Shown in pieces: positions 1 through 6,359 of a stretch of DNA of 6,359 nucleotides. This stretch comes from a virus (lineage: Duplodnaviria; Heunggongvirae; Uroviricota; Caudoviricetes): the IMG/VR virus record IMGVR_UViG_2695420514_000020, positions 1-6,359 of that record; one strand, written 5' to 3'. The position numbers and the translations under genes were made by a program. Each line of letters starts with the position of its first letter. Position 1 is the first letter of the stretch. The notes beneath the pieces are model-generated. The model was not told the origin of the DNA and did no database searches. It saw only the letters and a program-made list of their open reading frames with translations.

Positions 1-225
1 ATGAATCAGAAATACATTCCATCATGCTTGAGAAATCTGCCAAAGCAGAAAGCAAAGCCCCGCAAGCAAGCCATAAAGGACGCTAAGGCAGAGGTTATTG
101 ATCAAGCAATACAATTGCTCAGGGAGGAGTTAAGAAGTGGCAAGCTCGAAGGAATGATGATGCCCTATCAGCGCGGATATCTATCGGCGATTAGTAAGTT
201 GGAAGTATTGAAGAGTGAATTATGA
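1..225 (+). CDS. hypothetical small basic protein (74 aa)
   Basis: ATG at 1, TGA at 223-225. Lys/Arg-rich N-terminal half (KQKAKPRKQAIKDAKAE). The window starts exactly at the start codon, so the upstream RBS or promoter cannot be seen. No family recognised. Confidence 0.45.
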   Translation: MNQKYIPSCLRNLPKQKAKPRKQAIKDAKAEVIDQAIQLLREELRSGKLEGMMMPYQRGYLSAISKLEVLKSEL

Positions 226-280
226 ACTATCTGGAATTTCCGGATGGTTCATTGTTTTGGCAGCAAGCATAGAGGTGAAT

Positions 281-577
281 ATGGAATTCAAAGGTACTAA
301 AGGTAAGTGGGAAATAATGATGGATGGCGATGAGATTAAAATCATCCAGGCAGACTCACTTGAAAATGGCGCAGGCTGGCGTTCGTATATTGCAATCTGT
401 GAGGAAGTTCAACGCATTGAAGATGCCAATCTAATAGCGGCAGCACCTGACCTTCTCGAAGCACTTCAGTTATTACTTAAGCAATCAAAAAATAGAACAA
501 CGACAATATATCCAGAATGGTATGGAGCTGTTAATAAAGGTTTTGCAGCAATCATCAAGGCTCTGGGAGGTGAGTGA
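281..577 (+). CDS. hypothetical phage early protein (98 aa), possibly Ead/Ea22-related
   Basis: ATG at 281 preceded by AGAGG (271-275) with a 5-nt spacer. The track ORF extends in frame to GTG 215, which has no comparable RBS. Stop TGA 575-577 overlaps the next ATG (TGATG). Contains the motif NLIAAAPDLLEAL, which I recall from Ead/Ea22-like lambdoid early proteins (memory only, unverified). Confidence 0.55.
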   Translation: MEFKGTKGKWEIMMDGDEIKIIQADSLENGAGWRSYIAICEEVQRIEDANLIAAAPDLLEALQLLLKQSKNRTTTIYPEWYGAVNKGFAAIIKALGGE

Positions 578-672
578 TGTGCGAGTTTTACGAAGCAGAT
601 ATCAAACGCCCAGAAATGGCAAGTGATGCGACATACGTGATTATTTCGCGGCAAAGGCTATGCAAGCAATGA
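577..672 (+). CDS. small ORF (31 aa); possible 5' part of a frameshifted small gene
   Basis: ATG 577 with a strong SD GGAGG (566-570) and 6-nt spacer, overlapping the upstream stop. The ORF ends at TGA 670-672, while a second frame stays open from 627 to 776. Confidence 0.3.
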   Translation: MCEFYEADIKRPEMASDATYVIISRQRLCKQ

Positions 673-776
673 TTAGCAATCCATCGATTATCGATAATGA
701 TTCTGATGGAGCTGTTAATTATGCAGCAAGCGCTGCATATAAGTTTGCAGACGCAATGCTCAAAGCTCGCGAATAA
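660..776 (+). CDS. small ORF (38 aa); possible 3' part of the same frameshifted gene
   Basis: The frame is open from 627 and the first ATG is at 660, with no good SD (AAGG only 2 nt upstream). Stop TAA 774-776. The translation CDIRDYFAAKAMQAMISNPSIIDNDSDGAVNYAASAAYKFADAMLKARE looks protein-like from before the ATG, which suggests it continues the upstream ORF after a frameshift. Confidence 0.3.
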   Translation: MQAMISNPSIIDNDSDGAVNYAASAAYKFADAMLKARE

Positions 777-779
777 GCA

Positions 780-811
780 CTGTGTATTCATTCCAACGAG
801 TGAATACACGG
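780..811 (+). other. inverted repeat / stem-loop without a U-tract
   Basis: GTGTATTCA (782-790) pairs with TGAATACAC (801-809); the stem extends with C780-G811 and a T781/G810 wobble; 10-nt loop. No T-run follows, so this is not a canonical terminator. It sits in the 185-bp non-coding gap. Confidence 0.4.
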
Positions 812-871
812 AGCAATGTCGCTCGTAACTAAACAGGAGCCGACTTGTTCTGATTATTGGAAATCTTCTTT

Positions 872-896
872 GCCCTCCAGTGTGAGGGCTTTTTTA
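872..896 (+). terminator. rho-independent terminator
   Basis: GC-rich 6-bp stem GCCCTC (872-877) / GAGGGC (884-889), 6-nt loop, followed directly by TTTTTT (890-895). The orientation works only on the + strand. It lies inside the track ORF 857-1132, arguing that ORF is over-extended. Confidence 0.7.
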
Positions 897-961
897 TATG
901 CATACCAATAACGCTTCACTTGAGGCGTTTTCGTTATGCAATCAAACAGAAGGAGCATCCT

Positions 962-1132
962 ATGCAACAGTTCGCTATTGCAGGGGCGGCATCGGTTCGC
1001 CCTTTCAACCCGATTTTATCGGTACAGCATTCACGAAAAAATATTTTAACCGGAGCAGACTTTAAACAACCAAGAATGAAAAGTTTGCTCGAAAAGCTTT
1101 GGGATATTTTGAAACAACAAGGCCGTCCATGA
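962..1132 (+). CDS. CIII-like small regulatory protein (putative FtsH inhibitor, lysogeny control), 56 aa
   Basis: ATG 962 preceded by AGGAG (951-955) with a 6-nt spacer. Product MQQFAIAGAASVRPFNPILSVQHSRKNILTGADFKQPRMKSLLEKLWDILKQQGRP. The N-terminal FAIAG and C-terminal SLLEK...LWDILKQQG resemble lambda CIII (MQYAIAG... ESLLER... KRLIDILNQPG) as I recall it. The position upstream of the recombinase matches the lambda order cIII-kil-gam-bet. Confidence 0.5.
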   Translation: MQQFAIAGAASVRPFNPILSVQHSRKNILTGADFKQPRMKSLLEKLWDILKQQGRP

Positions 1133-1236
1133 GTTTTACAGATAACTGGTCAGACGAAGAATTCATTCGTCAGATGAACAAAATGCTCAATCAGCACAAA
1201 GAACAGGAGAAAGATGATGATTCTGACTCTGAATGA
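1129..1236 (+). CDS. hypothetical small acidic protein (35 aa)
   Basis: ATG 1129 overlaps the CIII-like stop (ATGA). Weak SD AAGG (1119-1122). Product MSFTDNWSDEEFIRQMNKMLNQHKEQEKDDDSDSE; stop TGA 1234-1236. It is below the track length cutoff and overlaps the next gene start by 23 nt. It occupies the kil-like position. Confidence 0.35.
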   Translation: MSFTDNWSDEEFIRQMNKMLNQHKEQEKDDDSDSE

Positions 1237-1525
1237 TAAGCGTGAAATATCGCAAATAATCGCAAGTTTTACTGATGAAGATTACGAACGAATCAACAGT
1301 GAAGTTGATCGTCTCTGCAAACGTTGCGACCCCATAAGCGAAATGCTTCGCTCATATAAACCAGATGAACACACTAAGGACGCTATCGACTGGCTGGAAG
1401 ATGATGACTGTAACTATCAGGAAAAAGCCGCTGAATGGTTCTGGGATGCAATAACCGAAAGAGTTAAGGCTGAATATGCCTTCGCAATATTCAAACGCAG
1501 ACATATTTATGGAGAAGCTGCATGA
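1214..1525 (+). CDS. hypothetical protein (103 aa) immediately upstream of recT
   Basis: Tandem ATGs at 1214 and 1217 follow AGGAGA (1205-1210). Stop TGA 1523-1525 overlaps the recT ATG (ATGA). No family recognised. It occupies the gam-like position. Confidence 0.6.
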   Translation: MMILTLNDKREISQIIASFTDEDYERINSEVDRLCKRCDPISEMLRSYKPDEHTKDAIDWLEDDDCNYQEKAAEWFWDAITERVKAEYAFAIFKRRHIYGEAA

Positions 1526-2424
1526 GCAATATCGTTGAATTCGTTAAACAGCAAGAGCAGTTATTCTGCGGAGCATTGACTGAACAGACGGTGACATGGG
1601 CTAAGGAAAGCCAGTTTGCAATTCAGTATTTCCAGAAAAATGATTACCTGGCTAAAACAGCACTGGCAAATCCAACCAGCGCACAGAACGCCATCATCAA
1701 TGTTGCGGCGATCGGCATCACCTTAAACCCGGCCAGCAAACTGGCTTATCTGGTTCCTCGCGACGGCATGGTGTGCCTTGATATCAGTTACATGGGATTA
1801 CTTCATCTTGCGCAATCGACAGGATCAATTAAGTGGGGGCAATGCAAACTGGTGTACTCAAACGACACCTATGAATCAAATGGCCTTGATTCAGCACCAA
1901 CCCACAAATACAACGCATTTGGTGAGCGAGGCTCTATTGTTGGAGGTTATTGCACGGTTAAAACAGCAGATGGTGACTACCTGACTGAAGAAATGAGTCT
2001 GGCAGAAATTAAAGCTGTGGAAGCAACGAGCAAGGCAAAGAATGGACCGTGGAAAACATTCTGGGAAGAGATGGCGCGTAAAACAATAGTTAAACGCGCC
2101 AGCAAATACTGGCCTAAAGCCCAGCGACTGGATAATGCCATTCACCTTCTTAACGAAGATGAAGGTATGCATCAGGAACCAGTTATGCCGCACAAATCAG
2201 AGGAAGATATCCGCGAAGATGAACGGAAACGCCAGCAGGAAATAATGGATAAAGCACAACTTCTTTGCGATGAAATGGCTCAGGCAGAAAACATGGACGA
2301 TTTGAAGCGATATTTTGCAGAAGCATATCGCCTGACATCTGGAATGAAATTGCAGCAGAACGTACAAGCCATTTACATAGAATGCAAAGCGAAACTGGAG
2401 GTTGCCAGTGAGCAAACTGTATGA
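1522..2424 (+). CDS. recT: RecT-family single-strand annealing recombinase (300 aa)
   Basis: The segment NGPWKTFWEEMARKTIVKRASKYWP closely matches the Rac RecT segment NGPWVTHWEEMAKKTAIRRLFKYLP (from memory). Length and surrounding residues are consistent. SD GGAGAAG (1511-1517). Confidence 0.85.
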   Translation: MSNIVEFVKQQEQLFCGALTEQTVTWAKESQFAIQYFQKNDYLAKTALANPTSAQNAIINVAAIGITLNPASKLAYLVPRDGMVCLDISYMGLLHLAQSTGSIKWGQCKLVYSNDTYESNGLDSAPTHKYNAFGERGSIVGGYCTVKTADGDYLTEEMSLAEIKAVEATSKAKNGPWKTFWEEMARKTIVKRASKYWPKAQRLDNAIHLLNEDEGMHQEPVMPHKSEEDIREDERKRQQEIMDKAQLLCDEMAQAENMDDLKRYFAEAYRLTSGMKLQQNVQAIYIECKAKLEVASEQTV

Positions 2425-2890
2425 AATTGCCAATGAATACGCAAAATTGATGGATTCAGATTTAGAACCAGAGATGATTGCTGACACAATAGAAGGCATG
2501 GAAGGAGAATTTACCGATAAAATAGAGCAACTTCTCGCCATTATTAAAAATGAATCTGGTTATGCTGAACGCCTCAAGGAAGAGGCAAAGTCACTAAATG
2601 AGCGAGCCGTAGTAATTCAAAATAAGATTGACAGCATTATGGCGTATATAGCGTCATCGCTTGAAATGGTTGGCAAGAAAAAGATTCGAGCAGGTATTCA
2701 CCAGGTAACAATCCGCAAACCGTCAGAAACTGTAGAAATCATCGACTCAAGCGCCCTTCCTCCTGAATACGTTGAGTTCGAAACGACAATTAAAGCCGAC
2801 AAACTGGCAATCAAACACCAACTAAAAGCAGGAATAAATATCCCCGGTGCTCAACTCAAAGTTGGGAAACCTTCACTTCTTATCAAATAA
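2408..2890 (+). CDS. Siphovirus Gp157-like protein (about 160 aa), common RecT companion
   Basis: GTG 2408 is 6 nt after GGAGG (2397-2401); the track starts at in-frame TTG 2402. Overlaps the recT 3' end by 17 nt. N-terminal KLYEIANEYAKLMDSD...DTIEGMEGEF followed by a coiled-coil region fits my memory of the Gp157 family (PF05565), which typically sits beside RecT or Erf. Confidence 0.6.
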   Translation: MSKLYEIANEYAKLMDSDLEPEMIADTIEGMEGEFTDKIEQLLAIIKNESGYAERLKEEAKSLNERAVVIQNKIDSIMAYIASSLEMVGKKKIRAGIHQVTIRKPSETVEIIDSSALPPEYVEFETTIKADKLAIKHQLKAGINIPGAQLKVGKPSLLIK

Positions 2891-2901
2891 CGGTATCGCC
2901 T

Positions 2902-3216
2902 ATGAAAAAGACTCCATGGGAGAAATGGGAAGTCGATTTCTTGCGCGAAGTAGCGGCGACAATGCCAGTTGAAGTTATCGCTGAAAAACTGGAAAGGACT
3001 GAAAAAGCAGTTATGGCGAAAGCAACAAGGATTGGCGCTGACATTGTTAGCCGACTTCGTGGAAGACGCTGGACAAGAGCCGAAGTATCACTTTTCGGTA
3101 AGTTCTCCGCAGAAGAAATAGCAATTGCAACCTGCCGCTCAATTTATTCAGTAAGAGCTATGCGATACAAGCTAAAAAAACTCGATGAAGAAAGAGCAGG
3201 CATACGAATAAATTAA
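2902..3216 (+). CDS. putative DNA-binding protein with two tandem Myb/SANT-like HTH repeats (104 aa)
   Basis: ATG 2902, 11 nt after the upstream stop, with no strong SD. Two internal repeats share a W-x(2-3)-E-x(2)-L ... EEIA ... R(T/S)-x(3)-(A)VR pattern: [12 protein letters not shown]...[21 protein letters not shown] and [37 protein letters not shown]. Confidence 0.55.
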
Positions 3217-3232
3217 CAAAGAGGAATTTACC

Positions 3233-3397
3233 ATGAGAGGACTTGCATACAATCCCGGCATTCTTCCGGCAGAAATGATTATTCGCCAACGCGTAAAGCC
3301 AATGCCATCGAGAGAGGAATTGCTTAAGAGAAATTCTTTTCCATCAGTGAATCAAAACAAATATCTGAATGCGATGTTGCGGAGTGGGAAGAAATGA
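3233..3397 (+). CDS. hypothetical small protein (54 aa)
   Basis: ATG 3233 preceded by AAGAGGA (3219-3225) with a 7-nt spacer. Stop TGA 3395-3397 overlaps the next ATG (ATGA). Below the track cutoff. Confidence 0.45.
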
Positions 3398-3906
3398 AAC
3401 AAATGACACTAATTGAGATGGATGGTTTTCTGAAAGGTAAATGCATCCCAAGCGATTTAAAGGTTAACGAAACAAACGCTGAATATCTTGTCCGTAAGTT
3501 CGGTGAACTTGAATCAAAACTGGAAACGGCGTTGCGGGAGTGTCGTTCTGCTGGAATCACGATTGATAACCTTGAGGCTAAATGCACGAAGATGGCTGCT
3601 GAAAATACATCGCTTAAGCAATCTGAGAAGGAATTTAATGACTTTTGTCGTGAGGAGTTTAGCGAATGGGAAGATGATGTTACTGAAACTCCAGCCACCG
3701 ATGCTTTTCTGTCTGAAGTGCGGGCGCAGGGGGTGGATGCTGCTATAGAAGCTGCAAAAAATCTGGTGGCCCAAGAATATGAGTATAAGGATTTCAAAGC
3801 GGCGCAGAGTGATTGCTGTATGCACCCTGGTTCAGACCTGGTAGGGAAGGTTGAAATGACTGAGTGGTTAGTTGACTTTGCTGCCCAGCTTCGCAAAGGA
3901 GAGTGA
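3394..3906 (+). CDS. hypothetical coiled-coil protein (170 aa), possibly Ead/Ea22-like
   Basis: Long + strand ORF with a heptad-like charged helical middle ([44 protein letters not shown]). GGAG 3381-3384 upstream. The antisense ORFs across it are Ser-rich low-complexity shadows. Confidence 0.65.
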
Positions 3907-3907
3907 T

Positions 3908-4465
3908 ATGACCACTATAACCGATAAGAAACAGTATCCAGGCGAGCAATATCTTAATGAGCTGATCACCAACATAGAGTTTGCTGCAAGAGCACCAGTT
4001 GAAGTCGTGAGAGCGATGGCTGCAGAGCTACAGAAGCGGCGCGAAGCTGATAGTGCAGAACCTGTAAGCCAAACTTACAAGTTGCCAGTTAATACACCTT
4101 GCCAAGATGCGCCAGCCCATATCTGGCTGCAAACGGCTGGAGTATGGCCAGAAGATGGCGAGTTAAGCGAATTAACGTGGTGCAGCCACAATCAGCACCA
4201 TGATGACACGCTATATGTTCGAGCTGACCTTGTGAATGGCAACTCTCCGGGAACTCCGGATGGTTGGATAAGCTGTAGTGAGCGAATGCCAGAGGACGGT
4301 CAGCACGTAATTATTTTATGTGATGGCGCATTCGTTCTTTATGCGCAATATCGAGACGGTGAGTTTTTCGATATTGTCCGCAATGGTGATGAATTTTTTG
4401 AAACACAGAGCCGCAATGTAACACACTGGATGCCGCTACCAGAACCGCCGCAGGAGGCAAAATGA
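3908..4465 (+). CDS. DUF551-like domain phage protein (185 aa)
   Basis: ATG 3908 preceded by AAGGAG (3896-3901) with a 6-nt spacer; the track start at 3872 lies inside the upstream gene. The C-terminus DGWISCSERMPEDGQHVIIL...VTHWMPLPEPP matches the DUF551 signature as I recall it. Confidence 0.7.
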   Translation: MTTITDKKQYPGEQYLNELITNIEFAARAPVEVVRAMAAELQKRREADSAEPVSQTYKLPVNTPCQDAPAHIWLQTAGVWPEDGELSELTWCSHNQHHDDTLYVRADLVNGNSPGTPDGWISCSERMPEDGQHVIILCDGAFVLYAQYRDGEFFDIVRNGDEFFETQSRNVTHWMPLPEPPQEAK

Positions 4466-4659
4466 TGGATAAATGCCATGGCATTTTAGGTAAGTTGTTC
4501 GGGCACTCATTCAAGCCGGTGATCGCCAAGAGCGCCGTAAAATTCCCAACACGAATTGAAGGAACGCCGTCATTTGTCAGTAGAACGCTGGATGCCCATC
4601 GGGATGAAGATTATCGTGGCCTTTATTGCAAGCGTTGCGGAAAGGAGGTGAAGCCGTGA
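4462..4659 (+). CDS. small putative zinc-binding protein (65 aa)
   Basis: ATGATG at 4462 follows AGGAGG (4452-4457) and overlaps the upstream stop. N-terminal KCHG and C-terminal YCKRCGKE give a Cys/His...CxxC arrangement. Confidence 0.6.
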   Translation: MMDKCHGILGKLFGHSFKPVIAKSAVKFPTRIEGTPSFVSRTLDAHRDEDYRGLYCKRCGKEVKP

Positions 4660-4772
4660 TTACAGTGCTAGCATGGCATTTAAGTGAAAGCATTTATGGC
4701 TGGATGCTGGCAATTACAGCAATTCAGGATTTGGCAATCACATCGTTTATTTTCAGCCTGTGCAGGAGGTGA
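4656..4772 (+). CDS. small hydrophobic peptide (38 aa), putative membrane micro-protein
   Basis: GTG 4656 is 7 nt after AGGAGG (4643-4648) and overlaps the upstream stop (GTGA). Product MITVLAWHLSESIYGWMLAITAIQDLAITSFIFSLCRR; stop TGA 4770-4772. Not in the track (short). The track ORF 4684-5055 covers the same DNA in another frame. Confidence 0.4.
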   Translation: MITVLAWHLSESIYGWMLAITAIQDLAITSFIFSLCRR

Positions 4773-4776
4773 AGTG

Positions 4777-5055
4777 ATGGACTCCTTCGCGAAATATACG
4801 ATTATTGACTGGATAGCATTCCTTCAGGTTTTGCTCATCTGGTTTTATATGGCTTACAGGAGTGGGCAGTGGATTGTCAGTGTAGCCTGTAGCAAGGGAT
4901 GGCGTTGGTGGAACAGAAAGAATAAAAAAGCACTGGCATTGGATTCGTTTTACGAAGCATTCAATCTTAACAGTCTTCAGCCTGGTTCTGTCGTTGTAGT
5001 CACCACTCAAAGTGGCATGACCATTCAGATTCATAAACCAAAAGAGGAAAAATGA
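4777..5055 (+). CDS. small single-pass membrane protein (92 aa)
   Basis: ATG 4777 is 7 nt after AGGAGG (4764-4769). N-terminal hydrophobic segment YTIIDWIAFLQVLLIWFYMAY, then the basic Trp-rich stretch GWRWWNRKNKK. The track's upstream GTG 4684 start gives an implausible Cys/Trp-rich leader with no SD. Confidence 0.6.
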   Translation: MDSFAKYTIIDWIAFLQVLLIWFYMAYRSGQWIVSVACSKGWRWWNRKNKKALALDSFYEAFNLNSLQPGSVVVVTTQSGMTIQIHKPKEEK

Positions 5056-5141
5056 TGTGGCCTATATGTGTTAATTGCGGACGGATGTGCCTATCTGGAT
5101 GGTGCCGAAAGTGCGACAAATGCACGAAGCAAAGACAATAA
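5052..5141 (+). CDS. Cys-rich micropeptide (29 aa), zinc-ribbon-like
   Basis: ATGATG at 5052 overlaps the upstream stop (ATGA). SD AAGAGGA (5042-5048). Product MMWPICVNCGRMCLSGWCRKCDKCTKQRQ has 6 Cys including CxxC pairs. Stop TAA 5139-5141. Confidence 0.4.
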   Translation: MMWPICVNCGRMCLSGWCRKCDKCTKQRQ

Positions 5142-5174
5142 CAATCCTCGCACTCGCGGGGATTTCTTTTATCT

Positions 5175-5200
5175 GAACTCGCTACGGCGGGTTTTGTTTT
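5175..5200 (+). terminator. possible weak intrinsic terminator / attenuator
   Basis: Stem GAACTCGC (5175-5182) pairs with GCGGGTTT (5187-5194), including G-U wobbles, around the tetraloop TACG. It is followed by TTTTGTTTT. Marginal stability. Confidence 0.3.
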
Positions 5201-5212
5201 ATGGAGATGATT

Positions 5213-5512
5213 ATGACTTGTTCAACATTCAACCCTTTAACGTTACAGAAATACCATCCAGACCCTGAAGATTTATGCTCACTGTGTGGCGGAAATCATG
5301 GTAAAGCCGCCATGATCGAATGTAAGGACAAAATCCACATATGCCTTAATTGCGTTGATGTCCTCGTTGATATCAAAAATGAAAGAGAAGATAAAAAGCG
5401 TAGCGAGGCTATTCGCGCCTTAGATTCATGGATGCGAGATGGGTATAGTGCTGCGCAAATTTATGACTTAGCCATTTCAAAAGGCGAAATACCAGGTGTG
5501 CGAATCGAATAA
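5213..5512 (+). CDS. zinc-ribbon-containing hypothetical protein (99 aa)
   Basis: ATG 5213 is 5 nt after GGAGA (5203-5207); in-frame ATGs at 5201 and 5207 are alternatives. CSLCGG ... HICLNC gives a CxxC-x18-CxxC pattern. Confidence 0.65.
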   Translation: MTCSTFNPLTLQKYHPDPEDLCSLCGGNHGKAAMIECKDKIHICLNCVDVLVDIKNEREDKKRSEAIRALDSWMRDGYSAAQIYDLAISKGEIPGVRIE

Positions 5513-5547
5513 GAAGCGCACTCAAGCATCTTTTGGGGAAATCACAA

Positions 5548-5715
5548 ATGCACTTCCTAGTCACAGGTGAATGGAATGGAGAGCCATTCAACAGAGTTAT
5601 CGAATCGGAGAACATCAACGACTGCTACGACCACTGGATGATATGGGCGCAGATAGCACATGCAGAAGTAACCAATATTCAAATTGAAGAACTGAAAGAA
5701 CACCAAGCCGCCTGA
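5548..5715 (+). CDS. hypothetical small protein (55 aa)
   Basis: ATG 5548 is 7 nt after GGGGAA (5535-5540); the track starts at in-frame TTG 5533. Stop TGA 5713-5715. Confidence 0.5.
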   Translation: MHFLVTGEWNGEPFNRVIESENINDCYDHWMIWAQIAHAEVTNIQIEELKEHQAA

Positions 5716-5728
5716 TTGCGGTTTTTTA
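5705..5728 (+). terminator. weak terminator-like hairpin with T-tract
   Basis: Stem CCGC (5708-5711) / GCGG (5718-5721), extendable by A-U and G-U pairs, with loop CTGATT. It is followed by TTTTTT (5722-5727) and overlaps the stop of the 55-aa gene. Confidence 0.35.
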
Positions 5729-5741
5729 TTGGAGACAAGAA

Positions 5742-6086
5742 ATGTCAGATTTGGCTATGAAGGTTTTGAAATGGCAATCGACTGGCGATGTTGGCATCAG
5801 TAGCGCAACTCTTGCCTCAATCGCATGTGGACTGAAAAAGAATATCTATGGTCATAGCTTCGGTGCTCCACATGACGCAGCAGACTTTCGGCGATGCGTT
5901 GCACTTGTTGAGCAGATTCCAGAAATCAGAGATTCATTCGACAAGGTTGCAAAGCGCGTTCCGGCATTCAAAGGAATCCTCAACGAATGGGATTCCCTCG
6001 TTGCTCTGTTGAAGTCTGAAATGAAGATACACGGAAACAAAGCACCAGAGACTTACAGAAGAATTAGCGAGTTACGCAAGGACTAA
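5742..6086 (+). CDS. hypothetical protein (114 aa)
   Basis: ATG 5742 is 6 nt after GGAGA (5731-5735). Clean single long ORF with stop TAA 6084-6086. No family recognised. Confidence 0.7.
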   Translation: MSDLAMKVLKWQSTGDVGISSATLASIACGLKKNIYGHSFGAPHDAADFRRCVALVEQIPEIRDSFDKVAKRVPAFKGILNEWDSLVALLKSEMKIHGNKAPETYRRISELRKD

Positions 6087-6126
6087 CCACAGCCTCACAC
6101 TCGATGAGGCCTGTACATATCTGATA

Positions 6127-6153
6127 GAGCCGCTATATGGCGGTTTCTTTTTG
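6127..6153 (+). terminator. rho-independent terminator, preceded by a second hairpin at 6092-6110
   Basis: Stem CCGC (6130-6133) / GCGG (6140-6143), extendable with wobble pairs, loop ATAT, followed by TTTCTTTTT. Just upstream is a 6-bp hairpin GCCTCA (6092-6097) / TGAGGC (6105-6110). Confidence 0.5.
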
Positions 6154-6167
6154 CCTGGAGAATTAAG

Positions 6168-6359
6168 ATGAGCGATACTAGCCTGATTCCTGAGAAAGAA
6201 GTGATGAACAAGCTCGGTGTTTCATCACGTCAGACAATCTGGAACTATACCAAACGGCACGGATTTCCGAAGCCAGTCAGAACCCACCCCAAATCATACC
6301 TTCGTGAAGCTGTTGAAGGGTGGATTCTTAACGGTGGCGTTAATCAGAAATGCTCCTGA
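6168..6359 (+). CDS. AlpA/Xis-family HTH DNA-binding protein (63 aa); putative excisionase or integrase activator
   Basis: ATG 6168 is 7 nt after GGAG (6157-6160). Pattern IPEKEVMNKLGVSSRQTIWNYTKRHGFPKPV...EAVEGWI matches the AlpA/Xis-family arrangement (…EV…G.SR.TIY…G.FPKP…W) as I recall it. The window ends at its stop codon. Confidence 0.65.
   Translation: MSDTSLIPEKEVMNKLGVSSRQTIWNYTKRHGFPKPVRTHPKSYLREAVEGWILNGGVNQKCS

Follow-up and report, generated by a model that had tools for sequence, protein, structure and literature searches.

The question raised by this locus is whether a reading frame of fewer than 30 codons is a gene, and if so, what its product is and whether it belongs to the membrane protein gene that it follows. 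The DNA analysed (the window) is the whole stretch of 6,359 nucleotides (nt) at positions 1 to 6,359 of the IMG/VR virus record IMGVR_UViG_2695420514_000020 (Caudoviricetes), and the short open reading frame (the micro-ORF) occupies positions 5052–5141 of its plus strand, directly behind a DUF4752 membrane protein gene. An earlier reading made from the letters of the DNA only (the sequence-only reading) had taken it for a translationally coupled micro-protein gene. The best overall explanation, to which we give a probability of about 0.6, is a mobile coding micro-gene whose product is a zinc-ribbon binder acting independently of the DUF4752 protein.

The translation of the ORF 5052–5141 is MMWPICVNCGRMCLSGWCRKCDKCTKQRQ, which has 29 residues, six cysteines and two CxxC pairs. 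Two in-frame ATG codons stand at its beginning, and both of them, at 5052 and 5055, are overlapped by the TGA stop codon of the DUF4752 gene (5053–5055), as the sequence-only reading had described. The Shine-Dalgarno (SD) sequence AAGAGGA that it had noted ahead of the ORF was located at 5042–5048, within the 3' end of the upstream gene on the same strand, with a predicted anti-SD pairing of -6.0 kcal/mol. Its spacing is better for the ATG at 5055 (7 nt) than for that at 5052 (4 nt). The ATGATG is found in almost all lambdoid copies of the micro-ORF, and every other group is without the first ATG. Because all non-lambdoid members begin with M-W-P-I-C (M-L/M-P-I-C in one subfamily), the second ATG is, on alignment of the sequences, the start homologous with the rest of the family. 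The family-conserved version, delimited by homologues and by the pattern of substitutions, is accordingly the plus-strand ORF 5055–5141 with 28 amino acids (aa) and a stop codon (MWPICVNCGRMCLSGWCRKCDKCTKQRQ), and the extra ATG at 5052–5054 is a lambdoid-specific, possible alternative start for a 29-aa version, from which gp30 of phage HK106 is annotated. The geometry of the TGATG junction is conserved: nearly all family members have TGATG or TAATG, a stop/start offset of -2, and lytic siphoviruses have TGAnATG, an offset of -4. Anti-SD pairing of -6 kcal/mol or stronger was present in 27 of the 30 distinct leaders, compared with 10.5% of random 22-mers from the same loci. A programmed frameshift fusion to the upstream gene was considered and rejected: behind unrelated upstream genes, and at junctions that differ in sequence, the ATG and the SD are conserved; no shared slippery site was obvious at the junctions inspected.

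Searches with tblastn, together with scans of IMG/VR, GTDB genomes and JGI metagenomes using degenerate DNA patterns, gave altogether 111 occurrences of the micro-ORF, representing 39 distinct DNA sequences and 35 distinct peptides of 24–38 aa. The hosts of the family are lambdoid and P22-like prophages, lytic siphoviruses, one Stephanstirmvirinae myovirus and one Kluyvera genome. With the peptide as the query, tblastn recovered diverged copies with 64–76% identity and all five family-wide cysteines in unrelated lytic phages (Deseoctovirus C1 and S192, Skatevirus KFS-SE2, Swiduovirus CF-SP1, ST1UNAM, ZCEC08 and the 154-kb Stephanstirmvirinae phage Tr1), and these copies are not annotated as ORFs of their own. 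The pattern scans added prophage groups with the micro-ORF behind an Orf73/TraR-like or a DUF551-type gene, as well as a more distant subfamily, M[LM]PICKHCGKVCWK[SN]WCYRCDKESGYQxK. The scan of one GTDB genome per species detected a single chromosomal copy, in Kluyvera sichuanensis.

All 35 distinct peptides begin with M-[WLM]-P-I-C, and the core motif is M-W-P-I-C-x2-C-G-[RK]-x-C-x3-W-C-x2-C-D-K, with R at the alternative site in the window. Counting residues from the second methionine (ATG 5055), M1, W2, P3, I4, C5, C8, G9, R10, C12, W16, C17, C20 and D21 are invariant among 21 aligned representatives and K22 is nearly so; in the distant subfamily, which lies outside that alignment, position 2 is occupied by L or M and position 10 by K. 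W, L or F occurs at position 13, and variation is seen at positions 6–7, 14–15 and 18 and in the tail. The motif is laid out as two knuckles, C-x2-C-G and W-C-x2-C, with eight residues separating them and the fifth invariant cysteine in between. The description of the product as a six-cysteine peptide is thus correct for the 29 residues encoded here, but the family keeps only five cysteines (C5, C8, C12, C17 and C20), and the sixth, in the tail (CDKC-T), is confined to the lambdoid version.

The phage isolates HK106, mEp213 and Kapi1 encode exactly the peptide of the window, and a 111-nt stretch around the micro-ORF was found in 183 of 5,426 complete Escherichia coli genomes. In all 40 matches listed of these 183, the micro-ORF is without RefSeq annotation, and the annotation under the match is the DUF4752 gene alone or, in one case, one hypothetical protein. 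HK106 does annotate it, as the 'hypothetical protein' gp30 (YP_007151700.1, UniProt K7P872), which has the identical 29-aa sequence at the same genomic position and is a bare database entry, to which neither a family nor a function nor an analysis of conservation is attached. A few other phage records have a second 'hypothetical protein' under the match, as judged from its position and not from the entry itself. No mention of the micro-ORF was found in the literature on DUF4752, the peptide string, HK106 and mEp213, and small prophage zinc proteins, and the family of 24–38-aa proteins is previously undescribed in the resources and literature searched.

An exhaustive search of 1.84 billion proteins detected no larger protein containing the module, and a tandem fusion of two family members used as a protein-search query gave no candidates. 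The sole match of the exhaustive search, made with the 30-aa window translation, was P0007, a protein of 157 aa with four repeats of SGFCQECDRCTTLQRQATK. These repeats are similar to SGWCRKCDKCTKQRQ, the lambdoid-specific tail (E = 6.5e-8 as a sum over four stretches), and the match probably arises from the repeats as an artefact. The exact peptide falls in a 90% cluster that also includes proteins of 473–480 aa, which show no resemblance to the peptide and were dismissed as a clustering artefact.

The pattern of substitutions supports a protein-coding function. In the frame of the ORF, the 22-codon core had proportions of synonymous (pS) and nonsynonymous (pN) differences of 0.82 and 0.14, giving a pN/pS of 0.17, as against 2.0 and 1.1 for the other forward frames. 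These are uncorrected proportions and pS is near saturation, so the true pN/pS would be lower. The 13 codons left unfixed by the loosest search pattern gave pS = 0.81 and pN = 0.29 (ratio 0.36). Gly9 is encoded by all four of its codons, Arg10 by four codons and Arg18 by CGA, AGG or AGA; the initiator ATG is invariant across the family, and frames +2 and -2 contain stops in 33–34 of the 39 DNA versions. The conservation of the frame, the start and the five cysteines across the 39 DNAs, with synonymous sites almost saturated, is far beyond chance. A structured RNA, which was the alternative that the sequence-only reading had itself foreseen, was rejected: the Rfam search of the whole window gave no match, no unusual structure was detected in the micro-ORF (fold z-score -1.3), where only the downstream terminator hairpins form, and the synonymous sites are saturated. 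Since pN/pS is low, synonymous sites are saturated and RNA structure is lacking, it is the peptide and not the nucleotide sequence that selection preserves. Taken with the conserved SD and stop/start overlap, the conserved frame and start make it very probable that the micro-ORF is a real coding gene, coupled to its upstream neighbour and mostly missed by annotation, as originally proposed.

The gene is not tied to one neighbour. When positions 4650–5550 were compared by megablast with phages and the 5,426 complete E. coli genomes, mosaic breakpoints at about 5049/5050 and about 5137 were seen to flank the micro-ORF exactly. Its upstream gene is DUF4752 in about 62 of the 111 occurrences, an Orf73/TraR-like C4 zinc finger (PF01258, E = 2.7e-10) in about 26, an ORF50-like protein of lytic phages in about nine and a DUF551-type protein in about eight, the remaining ones being a 213-aa ORF without Pfam match and a protein of Tr1. 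These are at least six unrelated upstream genes, with translational coupling to the micro-ORF in every case. At one locus (L021) the gene ahead of the micro-ORF is a different one, which has no more than its final ~25 nt in common with the DUF4752 gene; because only this much of the 3' end is kept there, the mobile unit is the micro-ORF together with its ~25-nt SD leader, a module of its own. Downstream of the gene there are either terminators or a further coupled gene, for instance a NinX-like or MazG-like one. The settings are early regions of accessory character: in lambdoid and P22-like phages the region between the recombination genes and xis (the exo-xis region), and in lytic siphoviruses a small operon with the lysis genes on one side and the head genes on the other; at locus L020 the micro-ORF region again lies just upstream of xis and int. 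The 17-mer CAGGAGGTGAAGTGATG, with an SD and a stop/start overlap in it, stands ahead of the DUF4752 gene at 4763–4779 of the window and at 46 related loci, and in another prophage group it directly precedes the micro-ORF itself (L089 8791–8807; also L090, L099 and L114). This suggests that it is a junction sequence shared by mosaic joints.

The micro-gene is also dispensable, an accessory cassette kept between lineages and often lost or inactivated in single prophages. In the Salmonella phage Vi II-E1 (L094, ~1480–1578) a decayed remnant, …RHCFRMRLTSWCKKCDKSPK, without a start and with its cysteines lost, adjoins a retained terminator where the entire upstream small operon is missing. One copy has been truncated by recombination and another is without its stop codon.

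As to the fold, a zinc knuckle or ribbon, proposed earlier on account of the CxxC spacing, is still the most plausible. AlphaFold2, run with a single sequence on the 30-aa window translation, gave a model with short beta bridges and a mean predicted local distance difference test score (pLDDT) of 82.7. In Foldseek searches against PDB, chains of the RNA polymerase III subunit RPC2 came first (6tut_B, root-mean-square deviation 0.8 Å over 18 columns, 50% identity; E = 5, not significant), and a search against BFVD returned only the self-match K7P872. The best match of a profile of 21 family members against all PDB sequences was likewise the C-terminal zinc ribbon of RPC2, VCDKCGLMGYSGWCTTC (E = 0.93, not significant). 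This ribbon (5fj8_B, 6tut_B) has the same C-x2-C-x8-C-x2-C spacing, with G after the second cysteine and W before the third (VCDKCGLMGYSGWCTTC against ICkhCGRmCwseWCrkC). In contrast to the micro-protein, it is part of a subunit of 1100 aa and has glycine at the position of the fifth invariant cysteine, and homology is not implied. As a structural analogy, the likeness favours C5, C8, C17 and C20 as a candidate Zn(Cys)4 site. With the two CxxC knuckles, the predicted model and the shared spacing considered together, the odds lean somewhat in favour of the peptide being a Zn(Cys)4 mini-ribbon.

Known families gave no significant match: in Pfam-A the best E-value was 0.037, in PHROGs v4 it was 0.05, and NCBIfam 20 gave none. 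The spacing of the retroviral CCHC knuckle (PF00098, C-x2-C-x4-H-x4-C) is not that of the micro-protein, which has C-x2-C-x3-C-x4-C, with cysteine in place of histidine, and no Pfam match. Neither is the RanBP2/NZF finger (PF00641, W-x-C-x2-C-x3-N-x6-C-x2-C), from which the peptide differs by a spacer of x8 instead of x10 and the lack of the conserved Asn, again with no Pfam match. The DksA/TraR C4 finger (PF01258) is matched by the Orf73-like neighbour at other loci, not by the micro-protein. A DUF1244 label carried by a copy derived from a metagenome-assembled genome was not reproduced, with no Pfam match even at E ≤ 10.

Among the closest known systems are small stand-alone zinc-finger proteins of phages and plasmids whose targets are the transcription or translation machineries of the host. 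Mu Com, with 62 aa, is one of these, and T4 Stp is an anti-restriction peptide of 26 aa without cysteines or a metal site; the latter is a phage early accessory gene of the same ~25-aa size class with no sequence relation, and the analogy is one of scale only. In two papers (PMC9239242, PMC8614690), lambda Orf73 and F TraR are described as C4 zinc-finger proteins of 73 aa, and their homologues as binding RNA polymerase. By analogy, these would be comparable to the micro-protein as small, non-essential early accessory proteins stabilised by a Cys4-bound metal, and an Orf73-like gene is its immediate coupled upstream neighbour in the ~26 occurrences mentioned. The micro-protein differs from Orf73, TraR and Com in being two to three times shorter and in having no helices and no PF01258 match.

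A mechanism consistent with these results can be outlined. Ribosomes ending the upstream gene would re-initiate at the TGATG, and the micro-protein would thus be made in step with the early operon. In the lambdoid case this would take place on the pL transcript, the terminators being passed under antitermination, a step that rests on established lambda biology. The peptide would fold round one Zn(II), with C5-x2-C8 and C17-x2-C20 supplying the four ligands and Cys12 standing outside that set. A basic and aromatic surface (W2, W13/L13, W16 and K/R) could then bind, in Enterobacteriaceae, a conserved macromolecule of either host or phage origin, be it protein or nucleic acid, independently of the neighbouring DUF4752 protein. 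As its function we infer that of an accessory, dispensable, zinc-stabilised binder. It is possible that the peptide is a small host-factor binder, as had been suggested from its sequence, and confidence in any particular target is low. The frequent coupling to Orf73/TraR-like genes and the resemblance to RPC2 point weakly to the transcription machinery as an attractive candidate. A bolder version, in which the peptide of 24–29 aa would rank with the smallest free-standing zinc-ribbon effectors known, docking on conserved host machinery (with RNA polymerase or a nucleic acid as the most attractive partner) and exchanged as a self-contained 'micro-moron', is a long shot. It draws on the likeness to an RNA polymerase clamp zinc ribbon, which is the sole resemblance of the peptide in sequence and structure, on the ~26 prophage loci coupled to Orf73/TraR and on the exchange between temperate and lytic enterobacterial phages. 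If it were true, the excess of Cys-destroying prophage alleles would reflect a cost to the lysogen.

Several observations weigh against the explanation given here. The resemblance to zinc ribbons is not statistically significant at such a length, and the AlphaFold model itself may be echoing zinc-ribbon motifs. The five invariant cysteines leave several candidate ligand sets, with zinc or an iron-sulfur (Fe-S) cluster as the candidate metal site. For most family members the search patterns required the Cys, G, W and D codons, and the conservation of these columns is therefore partly built in, an objection that is partly answered by the tblastn matches and the unconstrained codons. Polymorphism within the close lambdoid clade is mostly nonsynonymous, conserved cysteines are lost in JEP4 (C8R, C12R and C17F; copy at 1501–1587 of L096), L039 (C20R) and L067 (C20Y), and L038 has lost the C-terminal half; from these it follows that selection in prophages is weak or that the gene is often inactivated. 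Furthermore, in a synteny sample of lytic phages defined by the ORF50-like gene, independently of the micro-ORF sequence, only some phages (L125, L127) have the micro-ORF at the slot behind that gene. In L126 (~1800–1920) the slot is occupied by a different micro-ORF of 39 aa with a CxxC...CxxC pattern, MIICVACKYVHHHLDRVEKKGIRYTMCPMCGCGGFIKKK, and in L128, L129, L132 and L133 by a hydrophobic one of 26 aa, MIKTIFSVVEILCYAIIIFVLCMLIR, all of them coupled and unannotated, and the slot looks like a hotspot of micro-gene exchange.

Roughly one in two nonsynonymous changes among the closely related lambdoid copies abolishes a cysteine codon, though such codons make up only ~21% of the ORF. The excess could be due to chance, to the mutability of TGC or to selection for inactivation of the peptide in lysogens.

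Downstream of the micro-ORF, the terminator scan and RNA folding identified two terminator-like hairpins with T tracts on the plus strand. The first (5143–5174, hairpin 5143–5164) begins 2 nt after the stop codon of the micro-ORF and the second (5175–5204, hairpin 5175–5194) follows immediately. The second is identical to a terminator predicted in lambda's exo-xis region, ...TTTTATCTGAACTCGC TACG GCGGGTTTTGTTTTATG (Bloch et al. 2014, PMC4195576, Table 4). Together they form a tandem module of ~75–85 nt (~5135–5219), which is present also at L003 2501–2574, and in phage lambda it lies between ea8.5 and the gene that RefSeq places upstream of xis. Part or all of a 901-nt query matched 2,296 E. 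coli genome records, and many of the matches listed consist of the module alone. At L047 the same two-hairpin layout lies downstream of the micro-ORF with different stem sequences, and since the layout is kept while the stems differ, it is suggested that the structure and not the sequence of the terminators is conserved. The 66-aa ORF of the program-made ORF list at 5068–5268 (plus strand), already suspected of being spurious, was judged to be so: it spans both hairpins and the mosaic boundary at ~5137, its pN/pS across the family is 2.0, it is interrupted by stops in the lytic-phage homologues, and it has no annotation in the phage and prophage records examined in detail.

These data bear on several other explanations of the locus. 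The one nearest at hand would make the micro-protein a partner or regulator dedicated to the DUF4752 membrane protein, in line with the earlier suggestion that it acts jointly with the membrane module next to it. Within the lambdoid group the micro-ORF is indeed behind and coupled to DUF4752 in ~62 of the 111 occurrences, but the same micro-ORF is coupled also to Orf73/TraR-like, DUF551-type, ORF50-like and other unrelated genes, DUF4752 genes occur without it (BLAST matches ending at 5049), and at L021 it follows a different gene that has only the ~25-nt end in common. As it trails at least six unrelated genes, the partnership is not supported and we consider it very unlikely. Still less can be said for a chance ORF, or for a regulatory coupling ORF in which the act of translation would matter for the terminator or the stability of the mRNA and the peptide would not. 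It is true that a ribosome terminating 2 nt before the first hairpin would cover its 5' arm and that several family members are likewise directly trailed by terminators; however, the amino-acid sequence is kept despite saturated synonymous change, and in many members (Orf73-like groups, L022, Tr1) another coupled gene follows and no terminator. This reading is hardly credible.

The cysteines might, alternatively, serve something other than structural zinc: an Fe-S cluster, a redox-active or disulfide-rich peptide, or a modified or exported ribosomal peptide. Five invariant cysteines are one beyond the need of a Zn(Cys)4 site, and there are weak, non-significant matches to Fer4_4 (E = 3.1) and, through 'WPICK', to the cyclotide kalata B7 (E = 6.2). 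The micro-protein has, however, no signal peptide, neither a modifying enzyme, a radical-SAM gene nor an exporter was found in the varied neighbourhoods inspected, and a zinc ribbon accords with both the knuckle signatures (CxxCG, WCxxC) and the predicted fold, making such a role unlikely. A decayed, non-functional copy of a real family would agree with the copies in some prophages that are truncated or have lost cysteines, with the mostly nonsynonymous polymorphism of the lambdoid clade and with the DUF4752 pseudogene beside the micro-ORF in the near-identical prophage L001. Against this, the ORF, the SD, both ATGs, the five conserved cysteines and the upstream DUF4752 frame are all intact in the window, and its peptide is the one found in phage isolates; that the window holds a mere remnant is improbable. 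The preferred explanation remains the mobile, coding, zinc-ribbon micro-gene independent of DUF4752.

As a whole, the window represents the early-left accessory region of a prophage of lambdoid or P22-like type, and the corresponding part of the lambda genome is named the exo-xis region (PMC4195576, PMC8614690). RecT (1522–2424) is followed by Gp157 and several small ORFs, a DUF551 protein (3872–4465), and a 65-aa ORF (4462–4659), which overlaps the DUF551 gene by ATGA. The DUF4752 gene (4777–5055, plus strand) encodes 92 aa (Pfam PF15944, E = 3.3e-36; annotated by the Prokaryotic Genome Annotation Pipeline and in Kapi1), with one predicted transmembrane helix according to the Kapi1 record. 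Between 3872 and 5141 two neighbouring gene pairs are joined by stop/start overlaps, DUF551 with the 65-aa ORF (ATGA) and DUF4752 with the micro-ORF (TGATG). The 65-aa product ends in CKRCGKEVKP and has a weak match to DUF1660 (E = 0.01). In the near-identical prophage of E. coli NZ_CP031215 (L001, 3016–3294), RefSeq calls the DUF4752 gene a pseudogene with an internal stop, and the micro-ORF behind it is intact. Beyond the terminators lies a 99-aa CxxC and helix-turn-helix-like protein (5213–5512; CxxC...CxxC, PHROG 3680), then a homologue of the 55-aa protein that RefSeq places beside xis in lambda (lambdap35), a 114-aa ORF and, at 6168, an AlpA/Xis-like gene. The 99-aa protein was tried as a homologue of lambda Ea8.5, with no detectable relation (E = 0.14). 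It ends in IYDLAISKGEIPGVRIE, resembling the C-terminus IYDAIAAGKIPGVKLED of ORF50-like proteins (L006 921–1499; L047 from 13067), whose gene directly precedes the micro-ORF in lytic phages and lies downstream of it in L047.

Genes of this length lie at or below the cut-offs of gene callers, and the micro-ORF is absent from Pfam, PHROGs, NCBIfam and most phage records. What has been found is a solid and testable micro-protein family, probably kin to the small stand-alone zinc-ribbon proteins of phages, and not a new principle. It provides a clean example of a mobile micro-gene carrying its own SD and stop/start junction, and a candidate of 24–28 residues (the 24-mer being MWPICKHCGRMCWSEWCIKCDKRG) is amenable to chemical synthesis. 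With purifying selection shown in temperate as well as lytic phages, the poorly understood exo-xis region of lambdoid and Stx-type phages gains one more accessory gene, and should its product turn out to serve host takeover or anti-defence, it would rank with the smallest such factors known.

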